A program made the translations under genes and the position numbers. Positions 2,695 through 45,773 of a stretch of 64,000 bases of DNA are shown one piece after another. The stretch is from Planctomycetota bacterium. GTDB lineage: Bacteria > Planctomycetota > GCA-002687715 > CAIWVZ01. The DNA is taken from contig JBGANV010000001.1 of the NCBI GenBank assembly GCA_044222185.1, forward strand, positions 160,001-224,000, given 5' to 3'. Below the pieces are notes generated by a model. The model did no database searches. It had not been told where the DNA came from and worked only from the letters and a program-made list of their open reading frames with translations. The first letter of the stretch is position 1, and each line of letters opens with the position of its first letter.

Positions 2695-3534
2695 GTGACC
2701 GACTCCACCAACCCAGGCCCCCAGAGTCCGGCCCCTGCACCGGCCCCCGCCACGGCGACGGATTTCGCCATTCGCGAGATCGCCGCCAAGCGCGAGGCGA
2801 AGAAGCCGTCGCACGTGAGTGAACGGGAGTGGCAGCGGCACCGGTGCGCGGCGGGCACGATGGTGCTCATCCGCAGCCACTTCAAATCGATCTACCTCAT
2901 CCCGATGGCGGTGCTTTCACTGCTCTGCGGGATCTGGATGGTCTTCACGGACCCGGGCACGGCTGCCGATCCCCACGGCGTGTCCTACAAGATCGGGCTC
3001 GTCTGGATCCTGGCGTTCGTGTTCTACATGAACATCTTCATCTTCGAGTGGTCGCGAACCTGGACCTACGTCCTCCTGGCGACCATCCTCGCGCTCGTAT
3101 TCCTGGGGTTTGCGGTGAACGGCCCCGGATTCCCGGTCTGGCAGAAGGTCCGGGACGTGATCGGGGTGAGCCGCTTCGAGTTCTCGGCGCAGTCGTACTT
3201 CTTCTTCGCCATCTACTTCGCGTTTTGCGCCACTCTCTCGTGGCTGAAAACACGCTTGAACTACGTGGTCGTCGAGCACAACGAGATGCAGATGCACCGA
3301 AACGCCCTCTTCGGGGATCGGGAGCGTGTGTCCCTCCTCAACCCGCGGATCGAGGTTCGCGTTCCTGACATGCTGGAGTACTTCCACCCGTTGTATCGGG
3401 CCGGCCAGATCATCATCCACGCGCCCGACAGGACGATCGTCCTCGACAACGTCCTGCACATCCGCGCGATCGAGCGCACGCTCGACCACCTCACGGGGAC
3501 GTTGAGCGTGCAGGTCGAGAAGCCCGCAACTTGA
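2695..3534 (+). CDS. Integral membrane protein (about 4 TM) with a C-terminal soluble, possibly bacterial PH-like, domain
   Basis: SD AGGAGG before the GTG start. Four hydrophobic segments. The C-terminal part reads NYVVV...AGQIIIH...VLDNVLHI. Confidence 0.6.
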   Translation: MTDSTNPGPQSPAPAPAPATATDFAIREIAAKREAKKPSHVSEREWQRHRCAAGTMVLIRSHFKSIYLIPMAVLSLLCGIWMVFTDPGTAADPHGVSYKIGLVWILAFVFYMNIFIFEWSRTWTYVLLATILALVFLGFAVNGPGFPVWQKVRDVIGVSRFEFSAQSYFFFAIYFAFCATLSWLKTRLNYVVVEHNEMQMHRNALFGDRERVSLLNPRIEVRVPDMLEYFHPLYRAGQIIIHAPDRTIVLDNVLHIRAIERTLDHLTGTLSVQVEKPAT

Positions 3535-3570
3535 TCTCCCTCATCCCTTTCCGCGACATGCGCCGAACGT

Positions 3571-5454
3571 ATGATTCGGCGCATGAAGCGCGAAGAGGCG
3601 ATCCAGCAGTCCGCCGTTCACGAGTGGGGTGAGTCCTACTTCTCCATCGACGAGAGCGGTTTCGTGTGCGTCCGACCCAAGCAGTCGGACGAGCTCTCCG
3701 TCCGGCTCGTGGATGTGGTCGAGGAACTGCGCCGCCGCGGTTTCCGGTCACCGTTCCTGCTGCGGTTCCCTCAGATACTGCGGCACCGCGTTGCTCGCCT
3801 GAACGAGGCGTTCGCGGCGGCGATCAAGGAGTTCGACTATCCGAAGCACTATCAGGGCGTGCTGCCGGTCAAGGTGAACCAGCAGCGCGTGGTCGTCGAG
3901 GCCGTGGTGGAGGAGAGCGCCACCTATCGGTACGGACTCGAGGCTGGGAGCAAGGGCGAGCTCGTTCTCGCATTGACGATGACGCTCCATCCGGACGCGC
4001 TCATCATCTGCAACGGCTTCAAAGACCGCGACTACATCGAGCTCGCGCTTCGCGGATCACTCGCCGGGACGCAGGTCGTGCTCATCTCCGAGACGATCCA
4101 CGAGGTTCGCGAGGTCGTTGCGATCGCAAAGGACGTAGGGATCCGTCCGCGGATCGGGTTCCGCGCGCGCCTGCACAGCGCTGGCGTAGGCAAATGGCAG
4201 GATTCGGGGGGCTCACACGCGAAGTTCGGCCTCTCCACCTCGGAGCTGCTCGAAGCCCTGAACTTCCTCCAGGAGGTCGGCTACCTCGATTGCGTCGCCT
4301 GCCTCCACTTCCACATCGGGTCGCAGATCTGCGACATTCGCGCCGTGAAGGAGGCCGTGAAGGAGGCGACGCGCCTCTACTGCCATGTGAAACGCCGCGC
4401 GCCATCGTTGTACTTTCTCGATCTGGGCGGCGGCCTCGGCGTCGACTATGACGGAACGAGCACGAGCACGGACTGGAGCCTCAACTACACGATGGAAGGC
4501 TACTGCCGTGACGCGGTCTACAACGTGAAGATGATCTGCGACCAGGAGGAAGTCGATCCACCGATCCTCGTGACTGAGAGCGGGCGTTCGGTCCTCGCGT
4601 ACCACGCGGTAACCGTGGTGACGCCGCTGAAGGTCATCGGTCGGACGCCCCAGGCGCCTCCACCGGTGCTGCCGCCTGAAGCCTGTCACCAGGTCCGCGA
4701 GCTCAAGTCCACGCTCGAAGAACTGCGGAAGAACAACTGCCGCGAGCTGATCAACGACGGCCGGGCGCTGCACGCCGAACTCATCTCCGGGTTCAAGCTC
4801 GGCTTCGTCACGCTCGAAGATCGAGCGGCGGGGGAGGCGCTGTTCGTGGACCTCTGCATCAAGGCGCTTCAGATCTGGGATCGCGCCGACGCCTCCGACG
4901 AGGAGCTCCGGGAGCTCGAAGAGATGACGGCCCCGCGGTTCGTCTGCAATTTCTCGATCTTCCAGAGCGTTCCCGACACGTGGGCGTTCCGGCAGGTCTT
5001 CCCGGTCCTGCCGCTGGCGCGGATGCTCGAGGATCCGATCACCCATGCCACCGTGGGCGACATCACGTGCGACTCCGACGGGCGCATCGACGAATTCGTG
5101 GGCAATTGCGGACTGCGACGGACGCTCCCGCTCCCGACGTTGAACGTCGACGAGCCCTTCCACATCGGGATCTTCCTCGTGGGCGCGTATCAGGACACGC
5201 TCGGCGATTACCACAACCTCTTCGGTGCGGCGAACGAGGCGGCCGTCATCGTGAACGAGGGCGGATCGTTCAACGTCGTCCACCAGTATCGTGGGACGAC
5301 CGTGGCCGAGGCGCTGGAAGCCTTCGGCTACCAGCTCTCGATGTTGCGCGCGCGATTCGACGAACGCTATGGCGGAGACGACTCCGTGGACATGGTCCGC
5401 TACCGGGACTGTTTCATGCGGATCGTGTCGTCAGGCACCTACCTGAAGCGCTGA
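3571..5454 (+). CDS. speA: Biosynthetic arginine decarboxylase
   Basis: PLP-lysine motif PVKVNQ, plus GLEAGSKGEL, LHFHIGSQI, DLGGGLGVDYDG, DITCDSDG and GAYQDTLGDYHNLFG. Confidence 0.95.
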   Translation: MIRRMKREEAIQQSAVHEWGESYFSIDESGFVCVRPKQSDELSVRLVDVVEELRRRGFRSPFLLRFPQILRHRVARLNEAFAAAIKEFDYPKHYQGVLPVKVNQQRVVVEAVVEESATYRYGLEAGSKGELVLALTMTLHPDALIICNGFKDRDYIELALRGSLAGTQVVLISETIHEVREVVAIAKDVGIRPRIGFRARLHSAGVGKWQDSGGSHAKFGLSTSELLEALNFLQEVGYLDCVACLHFHIGSQICDIRAVKEAVKEATRLYCHVKRRAPSLYFLDLGGGLGVDYDGTSTSTDWSLNYTMEGYCRDAVYNVKMICDQEEVDPPILVTESGRSVLAYHAVTVVTPLKVIGRTPQAPPPVLPPEACHQVRELKSTLEELRKNNCRELINDGRALHAELISGFKLGFVTLEDRAAGEALFVDLCIKALQIWDRADASDEELRELEEMTAPRFVCNFSIFQSVPDTWAFRQVFPVLPLARMLEDPITHATVGDITCDSDGRIDEFVGNCGLRRTLPLPTLNVDEPFHIGIFLVGAYQDTLGDYHNLFGAANEAAVIVNEGGSFNVVHQYRGTTVAEALEAFGYQLSMLRARFDERYGGDDSVDMVRYRDCFMRIVSSGTYLKR

Positions 5455-35286: not shown

Positions 35287-38200
35287 ATGACAAGGCAGCC
35301 GGGCTCAGGTCGTTTCCAGGTGGTCCGACCACTCTGGACGGGGTCGCACGCGACCGCCGAACTCGCGCGCGACGCGTTTCGGGGCGATCGCCTCGTGACG
35401 CTCAAGACGATTGCGCCCGGACGCCTTCCTCCTCGCGTGATGGCTCGGCTCCAGCGAGAGTTCACCATCCGCCGGCGGCTGAAGCACGCGGGGATCGCCG
35501 AACTGCTCGACTTCGAGTTCGACGACGCGGGCGCCTGCCGAATCGTCCGCGAGTACGTGGACGGAACGGACTTCGTCACGTGGTGCGAGGGTCGGGACGT
35601 CTCCGCGATCGCGGACGTGACCGTTCAGGTCCTGCAGGCGCTCGCCTACCTCCACGATTGCGGCCTCGTCCACGGGTCGATCCGCCCGTCGAACGTCGTC
35701 GTGGTCGGTGGAGATCGGCCGTACGCGCGCCTCCTCGATTTCGATCCGGTCGGCGACGTCGTCTCCGGCCGCGATCCCGTCGACCGGCTCCACTACGCGG
35801 CGCCGGAGGTGCTTCGCGCGCAGGTCCCCGACGGTCGCAGCGACCTCTACTCGCTCGGCGTGCTCCTGCTCTACGGCCTCCAGGGGCGACTGCCATTCGA
35901 GGATCAGAACCAGCCCGCCGCCGTGGTGGCCTGGCACCTGTCGCCCAGTGCCGAGCGCGTTCCGAAGGGGTGCCGCCTCGCACGGACGATCGAGCGTCTC
36001 CTCGAGGTCGCGCCCGAGCGCCGCTTCTCCGAGGCGCCGGAGGTCGTCCGCGCCATTGGTACCGAGGTCGGCCGGCGGTTCCGAAGTCGCGTGATCCGGG
36101 AGAGCGAGCAGCTCCTCGTCACCGGGCGGTTCGTCGGCCGCGAACGCGAGCTCCGCAAGATCGAGGAGGTCGCGCGGCGGGTCTTCAACGGATCGGGTGG
36201 CCGGTTCTTCCTCGTCGCCGGTCCGCGGGGGATCGGCAAGTCCCGCCTCTTGGACGAGGCCCGAGTCCTCGCTCACATCTCGGGCATTCGAGTGATCGCG
36301 GCGCGGTGCGGGCGCGAGGGCTGTCCGCCGCTCGGCGTCTTGCGGGACGTCCTGAGGCAACTCGTGACGCACATGGGCGTCGAACACCCCGTCGTGGAGC
36401 AGCACCGGGCCGTGCTGACCACCGTGCTCCCCGAGATCTTCGAGGCCGTGTCGGCGCGCTCGACGGATGCGGATCTCGGCGCCGCCGACGCGTGGTTGCG
36501 GGTGAAGAACGGGATCACGGACTTCCTCGCGGGCGCGGCAGACGTCCGCCCGCTCCTGATCCTGTTGGACGACCTCCAGGCGATGGACGAACCGAGCCTC
36601 GCCGTCTTGCGCTGGCTTTCGAACACCTTCCGAGGTGGTCCGTTCATGATCGTCGCGAGCCTGCGAGACGACCCCGTTCCCGCCGGCACCCAGCCCGCCA
36701 ATGCGCTCCTCGTCGACGAGGAACACGAGGTCCTGCGGCTGCGACCGCTCCAGCCGTCCGAAATCGAGATGATGCTGAGTTCCGTGCTCGCGCTGTCGGG
36801 CACGCTCCGCGAACTCACCGATCTCATCATGAGGCTCACGGGCGGCGTGCCGCTCTTCATCGAAGAGCTCATCCGCTCGTTGATCGATGGCGATCTGACC
36901 AGCGTGCTCGGCGACGCCACGCCCGTGCGACTGGCCGGAGACGGCGACGCGAATCGGGTCGCGGCCCGCGCGCTCGCCCTCGCGGTCGCCCGCATGCGTC
37001 GCCTGGGTGACGATGCCCAGCGGCTGCTGGGCATGCTTTCGGCGTTCGAAGGGCCAGTGCCACTCTCCGAACTCCAGGTCGTCGCCGCGCTCGAGCCCGT
37101 GGCCGAGGCCGCGGCGCTCCAATCGCTCGACGCCGCCGAAGTGGTGTCCATCGAGCCTCGCGCACAGGGAAGCACCATCTCGTGGCGCAGCGATCTGTTC
37201 CGTGAGGCGGCGCGATCGCTCGTGAGCCCGGAGGTCATCACCGGCGTCCACGACCAGGTCGTCGATCATCTCTCGGCCCGGAACGACGGGAGCGTCGATC
37301 ACGTCGCGCGTGTGGCGTTCCACGCCCTGCGCGGTTCTCGGCGTGAGACCGCGTTGAAGGTCTGCATCGCGGCCGCGCGCCACGGGCTCCTTCTTCACGC
37401 CGGCGGATCGGCGCGGCCCTGGCTCGAGCGCGCGCGGCAGATGGCCCACGAGACCGGCGACCAGGAAGCCAGACGGGAGGCCTTGAACCTCCTCTCGGAA
37501 GCCTGCGAGCGCGCCGGCGATCTGGACGGCGCGCGCGCGGCCTACGAGGAACTCCGGGAACTTCCGGCGGCAGATCCGGACACGGGCGTGAACGCGCTGC
37601 TGCGCATCGGTGACATCGAAAGCTCCAGTGGACGACAGCAGGCGGCGGACCGCACGTTCAGTACGGCCGGGCAAGAGGCGGAGCGGATCGGTGACGCACG
37701 CCTGATCAGTCGGGTCGAGAGGGCTGCCGCCCGCCAGCTCATGCGACGCGAGCTCTATCGTGACGCCCGCGACCGGCTCGATCGTGCGCTCTCGCTTCTC
37801 GGGGAGTTCGCGACGCCGGCCGAGCTGGGCGGCATTCTCGGAGAGATCGGGCTCGCCGACTGGCACCTGGGCGACCTGGGCTCTGCACGGCTGCACCAGC
37901 GGCGGAGCCTCCAATGCGCGTTGCGTGCTCGCGACTGGGTCCTCGTCACCACGGCGCACCTCCACCTGGGTCTCGTCGACTGGAAGTCAGGTCGCACGAA
38001 GGCTGCGCTCGGCAGACTGACCCGTGCGGAGGCGCTCTCGCGGCGGCTCGGCCATTACCCGCTGCGCGCTGCGGCCCTGCAGAATCGCGGAGCCATCGAA
38101 CTCGAGCTGGGCCGCCTGGCTCAGGCCGTTCAGACGCTCACGCAGAGTCTCGCCGTGCGTCGCCGGCTGGACGACGATCCAGGCGTCGTCGAAACCCTGG

Positions 38201-38979
38201 CGATCCTGGCGACGGCGCAACACCGTGGCGGTCGCCATGACGTCGCGCGGCGCCTGCTCGACGACGCCATCGCTCGCGCCTCGAACCGAGGCGACGTCCT
38301 GCGCGCCACGCGCGCGCGGGTCGCGCTCGGTCGCGTGCTGTTGACCGTCGGGGCGCTCGACGCAGCGGAGACGCTGCTGCGCTCCGTCGCCCAGTCGCCC
38401 GGGTGCGAGGGTGATCGGGCCACTGCCGCCGGTGCGTGGCTCGGGCTGCACGAGATCGCCCGAGAGCGTCTGCACGACGGGAACGAGGAGCTGGATCGGG
38501 CGGTGGCCCTGGCTTCGGGACACGTGGCGCGCGTCGACGCCGAGGTGGCGCTGGCAGCCGCCAGGCGCGCCGTGGAGACGCGCCGAACGGGCGACGCCCG
38601 GAAACACGTCGCGGCCGGCCTGCGGGCCGCGCGCGCACTCCGTGATACCGAGCTGTGCATCCGAGCGCGCTGGATCGCAGGACTCGTGCGCACGGAAGCG
38701 GACCGGATCGTTTCATTCAACGCGGCCGTTCGGGGAGCCGAACGGTGCGGCATGGCCGAACTCGGGTGGCGTGTCCACAGAGATCGTGGTGCAGCCCTCC
38801 TCGAACTCGGGCGCGGCGAGGCCGCCCAGCTTGGGCTTCGGGACGGGATGCGGATGCTCCGTGCCATCCACGACGCGTTGCCCGCCTCGCAACGGCCGGC
38901 GTACCTGTCGAGCCCCGGGCGGCAGGCGTTGCGTGCCCTCTTCCGCCAATCGTTGTCGACGGGGGTCGGGGTGCGATGA
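35287..38979 (+). CDS. Ser/Thr kinase-like domain + STAND/AAA ATPase + TPR signalling protein
   Basis: Kinase fold (VTLK, HGSIRPSN, LLDFD, YAAPE, SDLYSLG). FVGREREL, Walker A GPRGIGKS, Walker B LLILLDDLQ, GGVPLFIEEL, then TPR repeats. Confidence 0.9.
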   Translation: MTRQPGSGRFQVVRPLWTGSHATAELARDAFRGDRLVTLKTIAPGRLPPRVMARLQREFTIRRRLKHAGIAELLDFEFDDAGACRIVREYVDGTDFVTWCEGRDVSAIADVTVQVLQALAYLHDCGLVHGSIRPSNVVVVGGDRPYARLLDFDPVGDVVSGRDPVDRLHYAAPEVLRAQVPDGRSDLYSLGVLLLYGLQGRLPFEDQNQPAAVVAWHLSPSAERVPKGCRLARTIERLLEVAPERRFSEAPEVVRAIGTEVGRRFRSRVIRESEQLLVTGRFVGRERELRKIEEVARRVFNGSGGRFFLVAGPRGIGKSRLLDEARVLAHISGIRVIAARCGREGCPPLGVLRDVLRQLVTHMGVEHPVVEQHRAVLTTVLPEIFEAVSARSTDADLGAADAWLRVKNGITDFLAGAADVRPLLILLDDLQAMDEPSLAVLRWLSNTFRGGPFMIVASLRDDPVPAGTQPANALLVDEEHEVLRLRPLQPSEIEMMLSSVLALSGTLRELTDLIMRLTGGVPLFIEELIRSLIDGDLTSVLGDATPVRLAGDGDANRVAARALALAVARMRRLGDDAQRLLGMLSAFEGPVPLSELQVVAALEPVAEAAALQSLDAAEVVSIEPRAQGSTISWRSDLFREAARSLVSPEVITGVHDQVVDHLSARNDGSVDHVARVAFHALRGSRRETALKVCIAAARHGLLLHAGGSARPWLERARQMAHETGDQEARREALNLLSEACERAGDLDGARAAYEELRELPAADPDTGVNALLRIGDIESSSGRQQAADRTFSTAGQEAERIGDARLISRVERAAARQLMRRELYRDARDRLDRALSLLGEFATPAELGGILGEIGLADWHLGDLGSARLHQRRSLQCALRARDWVLVTTAHLHLGLVDWKSGRTKAALGRLTRAEALSRRLGHYPLRAAALQNRGAIELELGRLAQAVQTLTQSLAVRRRLDDDPGVVETLAILATAQHRGGRHDVARRLLDDAIARASNRGDVLRATRARVALGRVLLTVGALDAAETLLRSVAQSPGCEGDRATAAGAWLGLHEIARERLHDGNEELDRAVALASGHVARVDAEVALAAARRAVETRRTGDARKHVAAGLRAARALRDTELCIRARWIAGLVRTEADRIVSFNAAVRGAERCGMAELGWRVHRDRGAALLELGRGEAAQLGLRDGMRMLRAIHDALPASQRPAYLSSPGRQALRALFRQSLSTGVGVR

Positions 38980-41177
38980 ACGACTTCTTCCGCGACCTCG
39001 AGATGTTCGAGAACGCCGAGCCGCAGGCGGAGAAGCCACGCTCCATGTCGGCGGAGCACCTGAGCCTGCTGGCCGATTTCGCGCGCGAGCTTTCGGCGGT
39101 GGTCGACGTGGACGACCTGGCGCGAGTCGTCCTGCGGCGCGTCCTCTCGCTCACCGGCGCCGATCGGGCCCTGATCTACCTGAGCCGAGGCCAGGAACGG
39201 TGCCGGCCCTTGTTGGGCCTGGACCGCGACCAGCAACGCCTCATCGGTGAGCGCAGCCGGGTGGGACAGGAGATCGTGGAGGCCGTCGTGGAGACCGGCG
39301 AGCCGGTCCTCTCCAATACGGTGATGCGTCACGAAACGGCCGCGGGGCCGGACGACTCGATCGCGCTCGGCGTGGGAACCTGCATCTGTGTCCCGCTCGA
39401 GTCCTACCGCGGTCGCATCGGGGCGCTCTACCTCGACAGCCCGGTCGGTTCGCACGAACTCGACGAGGAGGATCTGATCGTCGCGCGCCTCGTCGCGGTC
39501 CAGGCGTCGCAGGCATTGGAACTGCTGCGATTCGAGACGCAGAAGCGCGAGGCTGAACGCGTCCGTCTCGAGAACGACTACCTTCGCCAGCTCTCCAAGA
39601 AGACCGCGGACGAAGCGCGTGTCATCGAGAACCTGAACAACGAGTTGAAAGGGCGCACGGAGAAGCTGACGCAGACGTCTGCCTTCCTCTCCAGCGTCCT
39701 CGAGAGCAGCACCGAGCACGCGATCATCGCGACGGATCGCGACGGGCTCATCAGTACGTTCAACGCCGGAGCCGTTCGCGTCTACGGTCACTCGCCCAGC
39801 GAAGTCGTCGGGCGCGCGCGGCTCGACGTTCTCTTCCGCGGGACGGACCGCGAACGGGGCGTGCCGCGGGAGATCATCAATGCTGCGGCTGGACCGACCG
39901 GGCGTGCCGAGGGCGAGGCACGACGGGTTCGGAAGGATGGTCGAGAGATCGCCGTGCACGCGGCGACGACGGCGATACGCGACTCGGACGGGCACCTCAC
40001 CGGCTACGTGGACGTGTCGCGCGACATCACCCGTGAAGTGGAGATGCGCCGGCAGATGCTCATGTCCGAGAAGATGGCCGCGCTCGGTACGCTCGCCGCC
40101 GGCGTCTCGCACGAGTTCAACAACCTGCTGACGGGGATCATCGGCTTCCTCGAACACGCCGAACTCGCCCCAGACGCCGAAAGCCGCGCTCGGGCGATCT
40201 CGATCGCGCTGAATGGCGCGCAACGCGCGGCGTCGCTCACGCGGCAACTCCAGTCGGTTGCGCGCCCCGCCGTCACGAAACAGGTCGCGACGCCGCTCTC
40301 CGATCTTGCGAACGAGGCCGTCGCCCTCGTGGAGAAGAGCTTCGCCTCGGAGGGCGTCGAGTTACTGACGGAGCACAAGCCCGCGGGCATGGCGGTCCTC
40401 GATCGCTCTCGGTTGTTCCAGGTGTTGATCAACCTCCTGACGAACGCGCGTCACGCCGTGGAGAAGTCGGCGGAGAAGAGGGTCGTCGTCACCACGAGCC
40501 AGGAGGGCAGCTGGTGCGTGCTCGCGGTGCGGGATTCCGGCTGCGGAATGACGCCCGAGGTCCAACGCCGGATCTTCGAGCCGTTCTTCACGACGAAGGG
40601 CGCGCTGGGCGGCGACGTCCACGACGGCAAGATCCACGGCACGGGCCTGGGGCTCGCCATTTCGCACGGAATCGTGGCCGAGCATGGCGGGCGGATCGAG
40701 GTCGTGAGCGAGGTTGGGGTCGGCTCCACGTTCCGCGTTCTCTTGCCGATGGCGCCCGCTGGCGTGGAGGCCAACGCGCCGTCCGCCGGCTCCGCGCACA
40801 GGGGTGGCCACGCCGTCAAGAAACTCGACGTGCTCGTGGTGGATGACGAGGCGTCGATTCGCGATCTGCTGAAAGCCGTCCTCGGCCTGCGCGGGCACGC
40901 CGTGACATGCGCCGGCGACGGGGAGTCCGGTCTGAAGGCTGCCCTGGCCGCGAAGTTCGACGTGATCATCGCGGACTTCCAGATGCCCAAGCTCACGGGC
41001 GGGAAGTTCTTCGCGAAGCTCGCCGAGTGCGCCAAGGGACCTCTGCCACGACGGATCCTCATCACGGGGCTCCCGCCGTCCGAGCTGGACCTCCCGGCGG
41101 GCCTGGACGTGGTCCTCGAGAAGCCCTACAGCGTCCAGGACATGATCCGCGCCGTGGAGCAGCCGGGACCGGCGTGA
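38976..41177 (+). CDS. Hybrid sensor histidine kinase (GAF-PAS-HisKA-HATPase-REC)
   Basis: GAF (CVPL..IGALYLD), PAS (FNAGAVRVYGHS, RKDG), H-box GVSHEFNNLL, NLLTNA, DSGCGM, FEPFFTTK, GTGLGL and REC (VVDDE, DFQMP, KP). ATGA coupling. Confidence 0.93.
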   Translation: MNDFFRDLEMFENAEPQAEKPRSMSAEHLSLLADFARELSAVVDVDDLARVVLRRVLSLTGADRALIYLSRGQERCRPLLGLDRDQQRLIGERSRVGQEIVEAVVETGEPVLSNTVMRHETAAGPDDSIALGVGTCICVPLESYRGRIGALYLDSPVGSHELDEEDLIVARLVAVQASQALELLRFETQKREAERVRLENDYLRQLSKKTADEARVIENLNNELKGRTEKLTQTSAFLSSVLESSTEHAIIATDRDGLISTFNAGAVRVYGHSPSEVVGRARLDVLFRGTDRERGVPREIINAAAGPTGRAEGEARRVRKDGREIAVHAATTAIRDSDGHLTGYVDVSRDITREVEMRRQMLMSEKMAALGTLAAGVSHEFNNLLTGIIGFLEHAELAPDAESRARAISIALNGAQRAASLTRQLQSVARPAVTKQVATPLSDLANEAVALVEKSFASEGVELLTEHKPAGMAVLDRSRLFQVLINLLTNARHAVEKSAEKRVVVTTSQEGSWCVLAVRDSGCGMTPEVQRRIFEPFFTTKGALGGDVHDGKIHGTGLGLAISHGIVAEHGGRIEVVSEVGVGSTFRVLLPMAPAGVEANAPSAGSAHRGGHAVKKLDVLVVDDEASIRDLLKAVLGLRGHAVTCAGDGESGLKAALAAKFDVIIADFQMPKLTGGKFFAKLAECAKGPLPRRILITGLPPSELDLPAGLDVVLEKPYSVQDMIRAVEQPGPA

Positions 41178-41220: not shown

Positions 41221-43005
41221 TCACCGCAGTTCGAGTTCGAGAGTCTGCTTCAGCTCCTGCGGTGGCAGGCAGGACCGCGCGTCGCAGACGATGGCGGTCA
41301 CGGTCACGTCGATCGCCTGCTTGCCCGCGACGGCCTCCGGGCGCCTGCGAAAGTCCTGGCGGAACGTCACGGTCCCCGAGAATTGCGCCTCGTCACCTTC
41401 CGCGGTCTTGTGGGTCGTCGTGGGGGCGGGGACGACGAGCTTGCCGGCGGCCAGGAGGTCTCGGCCCGGTCCGATCACGACCTCCATCGGGTACCCCGCC
41501 GTCGTCGACGGCGAGTATCCGTGCCAGCCCTCGTCGAACGTGACGTCGATGCGGACCGTGACCACCCCCTTGGCCGCGTCGGTCGTCGCCCGGGTGCGCA
41601 CGTCGACGTGTTTTCCGTGGGTCGTCGATTCGGTCGATGTGGCCTTTGCCGGGGCGGGATCGGCTCCGTGGCCCGTGGAGGGCTGCGTGTTCACGAACCA
41701 CCGGTAGCCACCGAAGTCGCTGAAGTACAGGCGCGAGCGGTTGGCATCGAACCAGGTTCGCAGGGCGGCGGCGCCGTTCGAGGGTGCCTCGGGCGCGTAG
41801 CGCGCAAGGAGCCGTTGGGCGAGTGCATCGCTCGGGTCCTTCTCCAAACGCGCAACGATCTGCGCGAAGAACTCCGGTTTGCGGTTGGAGCCACCGAGCG
41901 CCACGACGTCCTCGTCGACGACGTGGACGTTGCGGTCGCCCGAGCCCTTCGTCGCATGCACGGCCTCCATGTGATCGAGGAACCACCGCTTCAGATTCGG
42001 GTAACTCCCCGAGGCGTGCTCGACGGTCGCGGCGCCGAAGTACCTCGTCGCGGACTTGGCGTCGAACGTCGCGACGGCGGTCTCGCTACCGAGGATCGCC
42101 GGAGTCTTGTCGTTCATCTGGGAGGCGACCCACAGCTCCACGATCACCCACTCGCGCGGACTCGCGACCTTCTTCTGGATCGGGTGCTGCCCGTCGAATT
42201 GCCTCATCCAGCAGATGGCGTTCGTCAGCACGTCCTTCGCCGATTCGGTCATGATCTGGGGTGAGCACGCGAATCCCCAAAGGAAGTAGTTGGCCTGACG
42301 ACCGAGGGCGAGGGAGTCGGGGCCCTTGGAGTTGATCCCGCTGGAAATCCACTCGCAGTCCGGCGAGTCCTCGAAGCCGAATCCGTCCGAGACCATTCCC
42401 ACGTTGTCCAGGGGGCGTCGCGAGTCGGATCCCTTGGAGTCCGTCGCGGGTCTGGGCGGCTGCTCGAAGACCTTCCAGGCACGGAGGGATGGGGGCACTG
42501 CGCGCGGCGCGTAGTGGGAGTAGTGCTCGGGGACCGAGAGGTCCTCGAGCGTGATGGCGGCCTTGAGAGGTGTGTTGAAGATCGGGTGGTCGAGGCGCAT
42601 CCCGTGCGCCATCTCATCGAGGCACAGTCAAAGCCAGCCGATCTTGCTCGACTTGTCTGCGGCCTTTCCCGCGGATGCGATCAGCACGGTCGGGCGTGAC
42701 CAGGACTCCGGGAAGCTGATGCTCTTGGTGCAGCCACTCATCTTCAGCCGGTTGCCAGGCGCCTCTTCCACGGTGCCGTCCGCGACGATGACGTCGAAGC
42801 CGGCCCCATTCGATTTCAGGAGTTCCTCCGGGGTCGTCGTGCCCACCTTCTCGAAGCGGCCTCGGAGGAAGTCCACGTAGGCCTTCTCGCGTGGCGTCCC
42901 GGGCTCTCCGGCATAGAGCACGGAAACCGGGTGGCGCGGCGGAGGTGCGGGGGAATCCTGCGGCGCGAGCGCCAGCAGGGGGAGGAGGGAGAGAGTGGCG
43001 AGCAC
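41221..43005 (-). CDS. Putative exported selenoprotein (594 aa, Sec at codon 126, U-x-C motif) with a C-terminal DsbD N-terminal-like domain
   Basis: ORFs 42628..43005 and 41221..42612 share a frame and read ...GGC TGG CTT TGA CTG TGC CTC GAT GAG ATG... = GWL*LCLDEM. The signal peptide is only in the upstream part. A hairpin lies just 3' of the TGA. The C-terminus has GWHGYS and VCDARSCLPP. Confidence 0.8.
42590..42627 (-). promoter_or_regulatory. Putative bacterial SECIS element
   Basis: mRNA reads UGA-CUGUGCCUCGAUGAGAU-GGCGCA-CGGGA-UGCGCC-UCGA. It forms a 6-bp upper stem with a 5-nt loop (G at loop position 2) starting 23 nt after the UGA, extendable to a lower stem across a bulge. Confidence 0.7.
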
Positions 43006-43080
43006 GGGAACCCCTTTCGTCGGCGGACAGGCGGCGTCCGCGGCGGATCTTAGTCCGGAAAGGGGGCGCTGGGGCGCGGC

Positions 43081-43218
43081 TCAGCCCTTCGGGGTCGTCT
43101 GGCGGCCGATTCGGCGGTGGCGCTTGATCACCTTCTTTCCGCCTTTCGTCTTCATGCGGGTCCGGAAGCCGACCTTCTTGAGCCACTTCTGCTTGCTGCG
43201 ACGGGTGTTGATTTTCAT
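43081..43218 (-). CDS. rpmH: 50S ribosomal protein L34
   Basis: 45 aa: MKINTRRSKQKWLKKVGFRTRMKTKGGKKVIKRHRRIGR, matching the L34 GFRxRMxTxxGxxVIxxRRxxGR pattern. Confidence 0.92.
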   Translation of the reverse strand: MKINTRRSKQKWLKKVGFRTRMKTKGGKKVIKRHRRIGRQTTPKG

Positions 43219-43286
43219 CGGTTTGCTCGGGTCGGGTGGGGGGATTGGCGGGCGATGGCCGCGATCTCCGACCCGAAAGAGGCGGC

Positions 43287-43316
43287 TTAATAGCAGCGAC
43301 CGAACGACAGGGTCAA
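43287..43316 (-). promoter_or_regulatory. Putative sigma70 promoter of rpmH
   Basis: Minus strand TTGACC, 18-nt spacer ending in TGC (extended -10), then TATTAA. Confidence 0.4.
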
Positions 43317-43547
43317 GCTTCGAGCCGCCCTCTTCCCGCGCTTCGGGGGGTGGCGGGGGGGGCGCGACTCGCGCGCGGCGGCAGGGTGCGCGGCGGCTCG
43401 CTCTCGCGCGACGCCGTCGTCCGTGCCCGCGGCGCCGCGGCGAAACGCCGGGAAACATGGCTTGACCTCGGGGTGGGGGCGGCGGGTAGGGTCTTGTTAC
43501 CCCGCCTTCCGACCTGCGTCCTGCATCGCGGAGGGCTCGACCCAGTG

Positions 43548-44117
43548 ATGGAGTGGCAAACATCCGAAACCGGTGATCCGCTCGTGGAGTCGCGGCAGGT
43601 TCACCAGCCGTCCGCCGAGGAAGCCCTCGTCGCACTGGCACCCGAGGTCGTCAACTTCCTCGAACATCACGTGGGCGATCCGGTCCTCGCGGCCGACATC
43701 GCCCAGGACACGCTCGCCCAGGCCTTTCAACTGCTTGGGACGCTGCGCGACATCCGGGCCCTGCGGGCGTGGGTGTTCCGCATCGCCGTCAACCGGTTCA
43801 ACGACCATCTGCGGCGCGTTCGGCGCGCACCTGCGGTCGAGGAACTCCAGGACGTCGTGGAGCGCCCCGATCACGACCGCCCCGAGCACTCGGTCATGCG
43901 GCGCGAATTGGACGACGTGATCCGGAGCTCCGTCGCACAACTCCCGGAGCGCCAACGGACGGTGTTCCTCCTCCACGACGCGAAGGGCATGTCCCACCCG
44001 GAGATTGCGGCTCTTCTCAACATCACTACCGATGCGGTGAAGACGAGCCTGTTCCACGCGCGCGAGAAGCTGCGCGAGCGACTGAACCGTTACCTCGGCC
44101 GACGCGGAAACGACTGA
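43548..44117 (+). CDS. ECF-type RNA polymerase sigma factor
   Basis: AADIAQDTL, AWVFRIAVNRFNDHLRR and LPERQRTVFLL..GMSHPEIAALLNITTDAVKTSLFHAR. Confidence 0.92.
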   Translation: MEWQTSETGDPLVESRQVHQPSAEEALVALAPEVVNFLEHHVGDPVLAADIAQDTLAQAFQLLGTLRDIRALRAWVFRIAVNRFNDHLRRVRRAPAVEELQDVVERPDHDRPEHSVMRRELDDVIRSSVAQLPERQRTVFLLHDAKGMSHPEIAALLNITTDAVKTSLFHAREKLRERLNRYLGRRGND

Positions 44118-44126
44118 GCGTCAACG

Positions 44127-45773
44127 ATGAAGGAACCCTGCCCACCGAAGACCCTCTTGCACGAGTACGTCGACGCTGCCCTCGACGGCCCGCGCCGCAG
44201 CGACTTCGAGGCGCACCTCATTCGATGCTCCGAGTGCCGCGACGCAGTTCGGCTCCTCCGCCGCATCTTCACCTTCGCGCGCGCCGTCGAGCACAGGCCT
44301 GTCCTCGACGTCTCGGCCATCGTCGCACGGGCCCGGGAGCAGGCCGCGCCGGAGATCGTGCGGCAGGCCGTCCCCGCGCCTTCGCGCTTCGGGCTCCTGC
44401 GGAGGGTCGCGCCCGTGTTGGCCGTCGCATCGTTGCTCATGGTCGTCGGCGTTGCGTCCTGGACTGCCGGCGAACATTCGATCCGTGACGGAGCTCCTGA
44501 GACGTCGCCTGCGCCCGTCGAGGCCCGACCCGTAGCCTGGACGTGGCCACCGTCCACGCTTCCGCTGGCCGAGCAGGTCCAGCGCGTCTTCGACGGCTCC
44601 GGTGCGCGCCAGGTCGCGATCCAACGCGCCGAGGAACTGCTTCGCCGGCGTCCATTCTCCGACCCGGAGCTCGTGAGCGGCTTGATGATCCTGGCTCAGC
44701 TCGGCGGGCCGGAGGCCCAGCCGTCGGTCACCCGGATCGTTCGCGCCCGCGAACTCACGCCAGAACCCTCCGCGAGCGCACTGGCGGCCACGCGGCACCC
44801 GCGGGTCGCCGCAACCATCGCCGAGCTCCTGCGCGAATCGCCGAGCGGGCTGCGGCAGCAACTCCTGGCGTCGGTGCCGGGCGAGGATGCGACGCGCTTC
44901 CTGCTCGACGAGTGGATCCGCGTGGGCCTCATCGACGGCCTGGAGCCGACGTTCCTCGAGCGAGAAGGCCTGATCACGCTGGCACGCCGCCGGGCCGTGG
45001 TCGCCTCGCGCGAAACCCGGATCCGGCTCTGGACTCTCGTGGGGCGGCTCGGCGGAGACGATGCCGTCGGCGCCCTCGAGAACGTCTGGCGGGAAGGCGG
45101 GACTCCGTCGGAGGTGATCGAGAGCCTCGCGGTGATCGGTTCGACCAAGGCCTTCGAGGCGCTCGCGCGGCGGCTGCCGAAGGTCGACGACATCGAAGAA
45201 TGGCCGCTGGATCCGGAGGTCGAGCTGATCGAGGGCGCCCTGCGCCAGCACGCGACCGTCGCCGGGCCGTGGCTCGCGCACGTCATGCGCGGGCTCGACA
45301 GCGTGTCGGACCGTCGCCGTCTGTTGATCGCCGCCGGCCTCACCCGCAGCCCGCGGGTGCTTCCAGAACTGCGGCGCGCGCTCGGCCGGTCTCAAGACCG
45401 TCGTGCCGCGATCCTGGCTCTCGCCCTCGCGGAGGACGGGGACAGCGTCCCGCACCTCGAGGCTCTCACGATGATGGAGGATCTGGGTACCCGCCGCCGT
45501 GCCGTCCGCGCGCTCGGCGCGATCGGGACCGACGACGCCGTGAAGGCCCTGGCGGGCCTGCTGCCGAAGGATCGAGAGCGGCGTCTCGTCGTCGACCTCC
45601 TGGCGAAGAGCCAGAAACCTGCCGCGACGATCGGATTGATCGACGGCCTGCGCTTCGAAGACACCCGGGAGCGCGCCGTTGCCGCCCTCAAGCTGCGAGC
45701 CGGGCCCGACGCGCCCGCGACCGCGAGTCCGGCGGCCTGGTACGCCTATTTCCGCCGATCGCCGGGGGAATGA
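44127..45773 (+). CDS. Zinc-finger anti-sigma factor with a TM segment and HEAT repeats
   Basis: EYVDAAL...FEAHLIRCSEC (ZAS motif), one TM, and HEAT-like repeats (RRRAVRALGAIG). Directly follows the sigma gene. Confidence 0.8.
   Translation: MKEPCPPKTLLHEYVDAALDGPRRSDFEAHLIRCSECRDAVRLLRRIFTFARAVEHRPVLDVSAIVARAREQAAPEIVRQAVPAPSRFGLLRRVAPVLAVASLLMVVGVASWTAGEHSIRDGAPETSPAPVEARPVAWTWPPSTLPLAEQVQRVFDGSGARQVAIQRAEELLRRRPFSDPELVSGLMILAQLGGPEAQPSVTRIVRARELTPEPSASALAATRHPRVAATIAELLRESPSGLRQQLLASVPGEDATRFLLDEWIRVGLIDGLEPTFLEREGLITLARRRAVVASRETRIRLWTLVGRLGGDDAVGALENVWREGGTPSEVIESLAVIGSTKAFEALARRLPKVDDIEEWPLDPEVELIEGALRQHATVAGPWLAHVMRGLDSVSDRRRLLIAAGLTRSPRVLPELRRALGRSQDRRAAILALALAEDGDSVPHLEALTMMEDLGTRRRAVRALGAIGTDDAVKALAGLLPKDRERRLVVDLLAKSQKPAATIGLIDGLRFEDTRERAVAALKLRAGPDAPATASPAAWYAYFRRSPGE

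Follow-up and report, generated by a model that had tools for sequence, protein, structure and literature searches.

A probable selenoprotein family with a U-x-C motif on a GATase1/ThuA-like domain in Planctomycetota

Does a TGA codon in the middle of an otherwise open reading frame end a gene, or does it encode selenocysteine (Sec, U) within a longer one? This question is raised by a gene on the minus strand of contig JBGANV010000001.1 of a Planctomycetota bacterium (assembly GCA_044222185.1), within a stretch of 64,000 nucleotides (positions 160,001 to 224,000 of the contig) that is hereafter called the window and whose own numbering is used. From 43005 to 41221, the strand is one open frame of 594 codons, the sole internal stop of which is a TGA at 42630-42628 (residue 126, KIGWL-U-LCLDEMAHG). 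Read with genetic code table 11, it is split into 42628..43005 (125 aa, GTG start) and 41221..42612 (463 aa). The original prediction, made from the sequence alone, held that these two open reading frames (ORFs) form a single frame encoding a 594-aa read-through product with a U-x-C motif and that standard annotation would split it. The frame and the alignments agree with this view, and a 459-aa fragment from the organism's own genome (P0002) is indeed deposited in the database. As judged from the comparisons described below, the gene very probably encodes a genuine selenoprotein of an uncatalogued family, in which Sec or Cys occupies an active-site-type residue.

The identity of residue 126 is best approached through homologues. 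A word-indexed search returned 30 relatives, of which the 15 longer ones align unbroken over the TGA, and Cys stands at the U126 column in all 15 of these aligned full-length homologues, within an invariant C-x-C-L-D block (DWYCLCLDAHAH). The original prediction had named Cys at this position across continuous homology as a supporting observation and had expected Bacteroidota homologues with W-x-C-L-C-L-D at the site, and DWYCLCLD was found. At E<=1e-3, an exhaustive HMMER search gave 864 cluster representatives, a number that falls to 435 at <=1e-10 and to 174 at <=1e-30, and the state of residue 126 was read in 177 database relatives. Cys is present in 98 of them, Ser in two, and Glu and Arg in one each; six cover only the C-terminal part, one is unclear, one ends at residue 125, and 67 start just past residue 126, within about 25 residues (MCL..., MRLDHP... 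etc.). Such shortened entries are the output expected of gene callers if the codon is TGA, and planctomycete proteomes thus appear to be systematically mis-annotated at this locus. The C-terminal ends of the gene product and of the single-ORF Cys homologues coincide in the alignment.

The codon itself shows the same picture. A match was found in 25 of 61 genomes from the same family, order or phylum, and TGA was present in 21 of the 21 matches that span residue 126. Of the twelve loci that were read, eleven have TGA at precisely the aligned codon (DWLULCL, DWLUMCLD, YGULCLN, GSGUTCL); the twelfth (L030) has a degenerate motif with no U aligned there. Of 80 loci in named genomes, 22 have TGA as the codon, 42 TGC, 15 TGT and one TCC; the resulting ratio of 22:57 is not a frequency because the search patterns favoured Cys forms. 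The TCC codon belongs to a planctomycete locus (L044, about 3001-4146) that reads S-L-D-L, and L030 has a degenerate stretch in its place. Overall, the 92 loci comprise 33 Sec forms, 57 Cys forms and two others. The 22 named TGA loci are titled as Planctomycetota lineages in 19 cases and only as 'bacterium' in three, and the Cys forms belong to Bacteroidota, to Opitutaceae and, in five records, to Planctomycetota. Support for the TGA in other data, a further point raised by the original prediction, came from contigs of four runs in three studies besides the possible source: at a likeness of >=99%, these contigs are unchanged at 42628-42630 and differ at 42508, 42781 and 42907 only. Because they agree at the codon, the TGA is not an assembly error.

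It might nevertheless be a plain stop, either in a decaying pseudogene or between two genes, one encoding a 125-aa exported fragment and the other a 459-463-aa cytoplasmic protein. The two ORFs given by table 11, the ATG that the second of them has six codons past the TGA, and the 67 of 177 relatives that gene callers report as such fragments all speak for this possibility. However, 33 loci from several deep clades of the family tree have the stop at the same codon, and the sequence is conserved before and after it; the Cys forms are single ORFs that are co-linear over the site. In addition, the Sec machinery of the genome is complete, and the downstream fragment would begin mid-strand in the predicted GATase1-like domain. 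We consider a plain stop highly improbable.

If UGA 42630-42628 is read as Sec, SelB and Sec-tRNA(Sec) would be guided by a hairpin downstream of it, and a candidate resembling a selenocysteine insertion sequence (SECIS) is present (GGCGCA-CGGGA-UGCGCC, Table 1). In isolation, this hairpin has a 6-bp stem, a 5-nt loop (CGGGA) and a minimum free energy (MFE) of -9.0 kcal/mol. It lies within all the constraints of the bacterial SECIS consensus given in a 2026 review (PMC13188914, Fig. 2 legend), namely a loop of 3-9 nt, a stem of 4-16 bp, 16-37 nt from UGA to loop, an MFE <= -7.5, and a G at one of the first two loop positions with a G or U after it. When homologous loci were scanned for a perfect stem of >=6 bp within +6..+50 of the codon, a stem was found in 26 of 33 TGA loci (mean MFE -12.5), compared with two of 25 Cys loci of similar G+C content (>=0.55; mean MFE -9.1) and six of 32 Cys loci of low G+C content (mean MFE -7.2). 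Since the hairpin register differs between subgroups, base pairs were counted on the named 8-bp helix, in the 20 TGA loci with a hairpin beginning 15-17 nt past the UGA. In this set, 88.2% of cells pair, a percentage that is biased because the loci were selected for having the hairpin at this distance, compared with 76.3% after shuffling (0 of 500 shuffles reach the observed level). Both sides change in five of the eight pairs (e.g., columns 21/37: UA 11, GC 4, CG 3, GU 1), and slid controls all fall far below the pairing level of the helix. A second type of hairpin (gugugg-UGCCC-ucgcac) occurs 25 nt past the UGA in an Isosphaeraceae-type clade (L033-L036, L038), 8-10 nt further downstream than in the clade of the window, which suggests that the SECIS shifted its position within one family.

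The original prediction also proposed that the genome should be checked for Sec machinery, and genes for tRNA-Sec, SelA, SelB and SelD were all found above curated cut-offs (Table 1). The tRNA-Sec gene lies about 80 nt past selA on the same strand, and selB is found on the same contig at a distance of about 1.1 Mb (loci L001, L009). As selD has an in-frame TGA of its own (locus L018), it is itself likely to encode a selenoprotein. Among related genomes, selA is above cut-off in all 16 with a TGA-form homologue, and the ten of 61 genomes without a selA match also have no homologue, a co-occurrence that discriminates only weakly since 51 of the 61 genomes have selA.

UGA read-through is known in bacteria, and the codon might be read not as Sec but as Trp, Cys or Arg by near-cognate decoding, or under a reassigned code. 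Against this, TGA terminates nine of nine neighbouring Pfam-supported ORFs, which argues that the code is not reassigned. The homologues carry Cys, the usual counterpart of Sec, rather than Trp or Gly; the SECIS-like hairpin is enriched in TGA forms only; and the presence of selA in 16 of 16 related TGA-form genomes points in the same direction. The probability that the codon is translated as something other than Sec appears close to negligible.

Selenocysteine as the preferred reading of the codon raises the question of whether the protein belongs to a described family. The above-mentioned review lists 119 prokaryotic selenoprotein families and subfamilies (PMC13188914, Table 1), and neither the architecture nor the motif of the protein studied here is among them; the original prediction had likewise not recognised a characterised family. 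No description of the family was found in the literature, a statement that does not extend to the supplementary candidate list for two planctomycete genomes (PMC4807772). The read-through protein (P0001) has no NCBIfam match at E<=1, and six Cys homologues match no NCBIfam model above cut-off; all they show is a faint resemblance to the DsbD model in its N-terminal part. Among catalogued selenoproteins, the CTP-synthase-related GATase protein (NF004836) is the only one on a GATase1-type scaffold (PMC13188914, Table 1). However, its Sec lies in G-x-U-x-G, which reads like the glutaminase nucleophile motif, whereas the motif studied here, W-L-U-L-C-L-D, lies approx. 15 residues past that position, and the protein does not match the NCBIfam model. 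Two proteins compared by catalogue description and hidden Markov model (HMM) differ in their motifs: TsoA (NF045695) shares the local L-U-L, but has LULAxC instead of LULCLD, and TsoB (NF045694, rhodanese/DsbD fusion-like), whose name refers to DsbD, has UxxxxU as opposed to the single Sec of the protein studied here. The U-x-C spacing is shared with two catalogued UxC families, one with a thioredoxin-like fold and the other a metal transporter (PMC13188914), but folds and families differ, and neither PF13192 nor NF033936 matches.

What kind of protein, then, carries the Sec residue? For the N-terminal 450 residues, neither Pfam nor NCBIfam has a matching model, and the fold was approached by prediction. 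An AlphaFold2 model of residues 1-445, built from an alignment of 87 sequences, has a mean per-residue confidence (pLDDT) of 88.8 and a predicted TM-score (pTM) of 0.89. Compared by VIA-align, residues 25-272 match HisH 4gud (Z 11.9, root-mean-square deviation 3.0 over 171 residues), the ThuA-like structures 4jqs and 1t0b (both Z 11.8) and a GATase1-like protein of Planctomyces, 3rht (Z 11.0); approximately 50 GATase1-type structures reach Z >= 8. Foldseek matches to the glutaminase domains of GMP synthase have E values of 3.5e-5 to 1e-3. In the predicted model, the Sec-bearing domain is thus GATase1/ThuA-like and not of the thioredoxin fold. PF06283 (ThuA) is matched neither in the protein at E<=1 nor in 47 homologues at E<=0.01, and in the ESM Atlas, the Cys homologue P0014 falls into unnamed clusters with a sub-threshold ThuA lead (0.83, from a language model). 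The glutaminase nucleophile elbow, placed by the secondary-structure register of predicted elements rather than by residue-level superposition, would be expected after strand 106-110, where the protein reads TVLIASAGKAA and the family consensus is FIGExA, both without Cys. The class I glutamine amidotransferases therefore share the fold but have a nucleophile Cys that is missing here. The ThuA-like and other non-catalytic GATase1-like proteins (4jqs, 1t0b, 3rht, 2gk3) match over 25-272 with Z 11.0-11.8, and the missing Cys at the nucleophile position, as judged from the same register, is a trait of ThuA-like proteins as well. In contrast to these, the family studied here has U/C-x-C on the next strand and a conserved extra domain of 170 residues. 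U126 and C128 lie on this following predicted strand (126-129), and their spacing of two residues would turn the side chains to the same face, an arrangement that would fit a U-C selenylsulfide.

The two remaining domains differ in how well they can be named. The middle domain has an invariant D364 and W418 and a nearly invariant R402-Y403-T404, and it matches no Pfam model in any of 47 homologues. The C-terminal domain, which carries the motifs GWHGYS and VCDARSCLPP, had been predicted to be DsbD-N-like with a Cx4C pair, and this assignment was borne out: PF11412 matches with 33.3 bits (cut-off 25, E 5.6e-8), as it does in 44 of 47 long homologues. Foldseek finds the solved N-terminal DsbD domains (nDsbD) 3pfu, 1l6p, 1jpe, 1vrs and 6dnv with E values of 1.4e-6 to 2.6e-5 (TM-score by target 0.55-0.61), together with ScsB-N 6c29 (E about 1e-6). 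This search used a full-length model with a mean pLDDT of 70.9, but of 79-91 in DsbD_N. A phmmer search of PDB sequences with the C-terminal 139 residues gave nothing relevant and hence no residue-level alignment to a solved nDsbD. In the 47 long Cys forms, four Cys residues are invariant (numbered in P0014: C153 and C155 of CxC, C624 and C629 of Cx4C). The C-terminal 120 residues, which match nDsbD and ScsB-N, carry their invariant pair just before Pro-Pro, as does the family consensus. However, the domain studied here is C-terminal, has Cx4C spacing and is fused to an unrelated Sec-bearing domain in a soluble or anchored protein. The transmembrane domain and the thioredoxin-like c-domain of full-length DsbD are missing (only DsbD_N was found with Pfam and NCBIfam), and the homologues align with the NCBIfam DsbD model over positions 37-139 alone, with scores far under its cut-off.

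Table 1. Position of the selenoprotein gene, its elements and the Sec machinery (window numbering; the last four rows are given by contig of the same genome)
Feature	Position	Strand	Basis or remark
Complete selenoprotein coding sequence (probable)	41221..43005	-	GTG start 43005; terminal TGA 41223-41221; continuous homology over internal TGA
Shine-Dalgarno-like AAAGGGG	43011..43017	-	read from sequence; 5 nt 5' of GTG start
Hydrophobic N-terminal segment, residues 1-14, MLATLSLLPLLALA	42964..43005	-	sequence; presumed export signal or signal anchor
GATase1/ThuA-like alpha/beta domain (predicted), residues 25-272	42190..42933	-	AlphaFold2 model and fold matches; carries U126 and C128
In-frame UGA, probable U126	42628..42630	-	Cys-aligned in homologues; TGA at 33/92 homologous loci; same in contigs of 4 runs
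TGC, C128, partner in U-x-C	42622..42624	-	nearly invariant in 87 sequences; as C155 of P0014, without exception in 47 long Cys forms
SECIS-like hairpin	42594..42610	-	stem 17 nt and apical loop 23 nt past UGA
Conserved middle domain, residues 273-445	41671..42189	-	AlphaFold2: mainly helical, small sheets; conserved residues
DsbD_N (Ig-like) domain, residues 473-588	41242..41589	-	PF11412 match; Foldseek
Cx4C pair C574...C579 (VCDARSC) in DsbD_N	41269..41286	-	invariant equivalent pair in 47 long forms
tRNA-Sec	C1:1632625-1632718		74.7 bits, cut-off 47; ARAGORN anticodon TCA
selA	C1:1631186-1632544		487 bits, above cut-off
selB	C1:529551-531440		330 bits, above cut-off
selD	C14:427704-428624		371 bits, above cut-off; one in-frame TGA of its own

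Taken as a whole, the gene would encode a 594-residue extracytoplasmic selenoprotein, and we infer that it acts as a periplasmic thiol/selenol redox protein. Export is presumed from the hydrophobic N-terminus and is in line with the N-termini of homologues, which in the alignment have MKK followed by a hydrophobic stretch and, in some cases, a lipobox-like Cys. U126 and C128 might form a reversible selenylsulfide, i.e., a CxC redox centre with Sec in place of one Cys. Where DsbD_N is present, its Cx4C pair could shuttle reducing equivalents between a TlpA-type thioredoxin-fold partner and the U-x-C centre. The original prediction had proposed an intramolecular electron relay between U-x-C and Cx4C. 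Both the existence and the direction of such a relay between domains are put forward only tentatively, and we would rather expect it to fail than to hold. A complex prediction of the N-terminal module with DsbD_N of a natural Cys homologue scored 0.26, with a mark of 0.32, and is uninformative on binding.

The genomic context of the Cys forms bears on this chemistry. In the flanks of the 92 loci, ORFs were clustered by all-against-all BLAST, and cluster representatives were scanned with Pfam. A gene for a TlpA-like thioredoxin-fold protein (Redoxin, AhpC-TSA or Thioredoxin_8) is present at 29 of 57 Cys loci and none of 33 Sec loci; it often shares the strand of the Cys-form gene, from which it is separated by 0-60 nt, often stands on both sides of that gene, and also occurs in Opitutaceae (L043, L049, L103) and in one Isosphaeraceae record (L037). 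These neighbours support a thiol-redox chemistry of the family, with the limit that the context comes from Cys forms and not from the studied locus. SusD-like genes lie upstream, mostly on the same strand and with gaps of 3-90 nt, at 37 of 57 Cys loci, and a TonB-dependent receptor gene precedes the SusD-like gene at 27 of the 57; neither gene occurs at the 33 Sec loci. Genes of an extracytoplasmic function (ECF) sigma factor cluster are found at seven of 57 Cys loci and at one of 33 Sec loci, namely in the studied window, and FecR-like genes lie near the homologue in six Cys-form loci.

Nevertheless, a genuine selenoprotein need not be a redox protein. U126-x-C128 together with nearby His residues (AHG 133-135, H140 of HPIF) might form a soft-metal site for Cu, Hg, Zn or Ni, and the protein might be a periplasmic metal-binding or metal-handling factor whose ligands are kept reduced by DsbD_N and TlpA-like partners. 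Position A133 and H140 are nearly invariant beside C126/C128 (consensus CLCLDxxAHxxxxxHPIF), and ScsB-N 6c29, which is DsbD_N-like, is among the fold matches. ScsB is part of a copper-stress system, and TlpA-like proteins serve the assembly of copper centres. A UxC motif also occurs in the Cu/Zn efflux transporter family SO_0444 (PMC13188914). However, the flanks contained no recognisable genes for metal transport or metal resistance, and the catalogue (PMC13188914) takes the majority of uncharacterised Sec/Cys pairs to be redox-active. A metal site, the main alternative to a redox centre, appears rather unlikely, and the same low probability applies to a role of the protein in metal handling, whereas redox chemistry rather than metal binding is slightly favoured.

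Several observations weigh against an exported redox selenoprotein whose Sec is inserted with the help of the hairpin. Regarding the RNA, no perfect stem of >=6 bp was found in seven of 33 TGA loci; there was no excess stability over dinucleotide or mononucleotide shuffles (z -0.50 for 73 nt, and z -1.55 to +1.34 across 11 loci); RNAalifold, applied to 11 TGA loci aligned in codon register, missed the hairpin and gave a weak 5-pair helix elsewhere (-1.07 kcal/mol); and a search of 42480-42700 against Rfam at E<=10 returned no match. Moreover, the codons for the conserved Ala-His-Gly coincide with the loop, and part of the loop's conservation thus reflects the protein. Regarding the protein, a few relatives (L044, L030 and four of the 177 proteins) lack both U/C126 and C128; these may be non-redox paralogues. 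The DsbD_N module is missing from about 26 of 92 loci and is thus not needed for the core function. Regarding export, the original prediction had ascribed a Shine-Dalgarno sequence and a signal peptide to the upstream part of the gene; AAAGGGG lies 5 nt upstream of the start, and the N-terminus (MLATLSLLPLLALAPQ) is hydrophobic, but it has no basic n-region, and ALA is followed by Pro, so the claim of a signal peptide holds only in part. Finally, no thioredoxin-like neighbour was found at the 33 Sec-form loci, including the studied one, with flanks of about 1.5 kb at L021-L031.

The start of the gene appears well defined, since no alternative ATG, GTG or TTG start exists between the upstream in-frame stop (43083-43081) and 43005. 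Its length varies within the family: long forms, as judged by the length past position 126, account for 17 of the 33 Sec loci and 49 of the 57 Cys loci, and a few of the short forms may reflect contig ends. The closest relative (L032, 56% identity) is a short form.

With high probability for a selenoprotein, and as judged from the sequences collected, the family is widespread, with the Sec form in Planctomycetota and the Cys form in Bacteroidota and Opitutaceae. A quick maximum-likelihood tree (LG+G4) was calculated from 91 rows, leaving out L074 because of its short alignment; the Sec/Cys column was masked as X in Sec rows only, and Cys rows kept C. The tree (33 Sec, 56 Cys and two other rows) needs five state changes. 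A clade of 52 Cys rows (support 95), comprising Bacteroidota, Opitutaceae and three contigs titled Bacillota, is sister to a clade of 14 Planctomycetota Sec rows (support 100). The other Sec rows are distributed over several branches that are both deep and long, and four planctomycete Cys rows are nested between these Sec rows. As the tree is unrooted, the direction of change (Sec to Cys or Cys to Sec) is not derivable from it, and its deep order is unsafe because several branches are long. Three loci titled Lachnospiraceae or Clostridium (L053, L055, L080) have Cys forms nested in Prevotella clades and SusD/TlpA-type neighbours, and are probably mis-binned Bacteroidota contigs.

These elements can be joined into one picture, which is speculative and, as a whole, unlikely to be correct in every part. 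A ThuA/GATase1-like fold that has lost the glutaminase nucleophile, bears a U-x-C selenylsulfide on a strand and is often wired to DsbD-N might constitute a new catalytic scaffold. It could act as the terminal reductase of an extracytoplasmic path (TlpA-like to DsbD-N to U-x-C) on a small substrate, imported in Bacteroidota by the adjacent upstream SusC/SusD, with Sec widespread over planctomycete branches and Cys in a single Bacteroidota and Opitutaceae clade. Independently of this picture, the family would add to the prokaryotic selenoproteome a member that is missing from current HMM libraries and from the catalogue of 119 families, and it would place Sec on a GATase1/ThuA-like fold, where Sec/Cys redox centres are unexpected. 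Orthologues of the Cys form occur commonly in Bacteroidota of gut and soil, in operons with SusC/SusD and TlpA-like genes under control of the ECF-sigma/FecR type. Thus, a function found for either form would explain an uncharacterised class of non-glycan SusCD loci, and the natural Sec/Cys pair offers a ready comparison of both residues in one scaffold.

In the window itself, an ORF resembling ribosomal protein L34 (minus strand, 43081-43218; Pfam 21.9 bits, below the cut-off of 25) ends 75 nt 5' of the selenoprotein start in the same frame, and its TGA stop (43083-43081) bounds the selenoprotein ORF. The ECF sigma factor gene (plus strand, 43236-44117) is arranged back to back with the selenoprotein gene and is followed by a gene for an anti-sigma-like protein with zf-HC2 and HEAT repeats (plus strand, 44127-45773). 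At the other end, a GAF-PAS-HisKA-HATPase-receiver hybrid kinase gene (plus strand, 38655-41177, an 840-aa ORF) converges on the 3' end of the selenoprotein gene. Its beginning is overlapped in another frame by an ORF encoding a 1230-aa Ser/Thr kinase-AAA-TPR (STAND-like) protein (plus strand, 35287-38979), and the true start of the hybrid kinase probably lies further downstream than listed.

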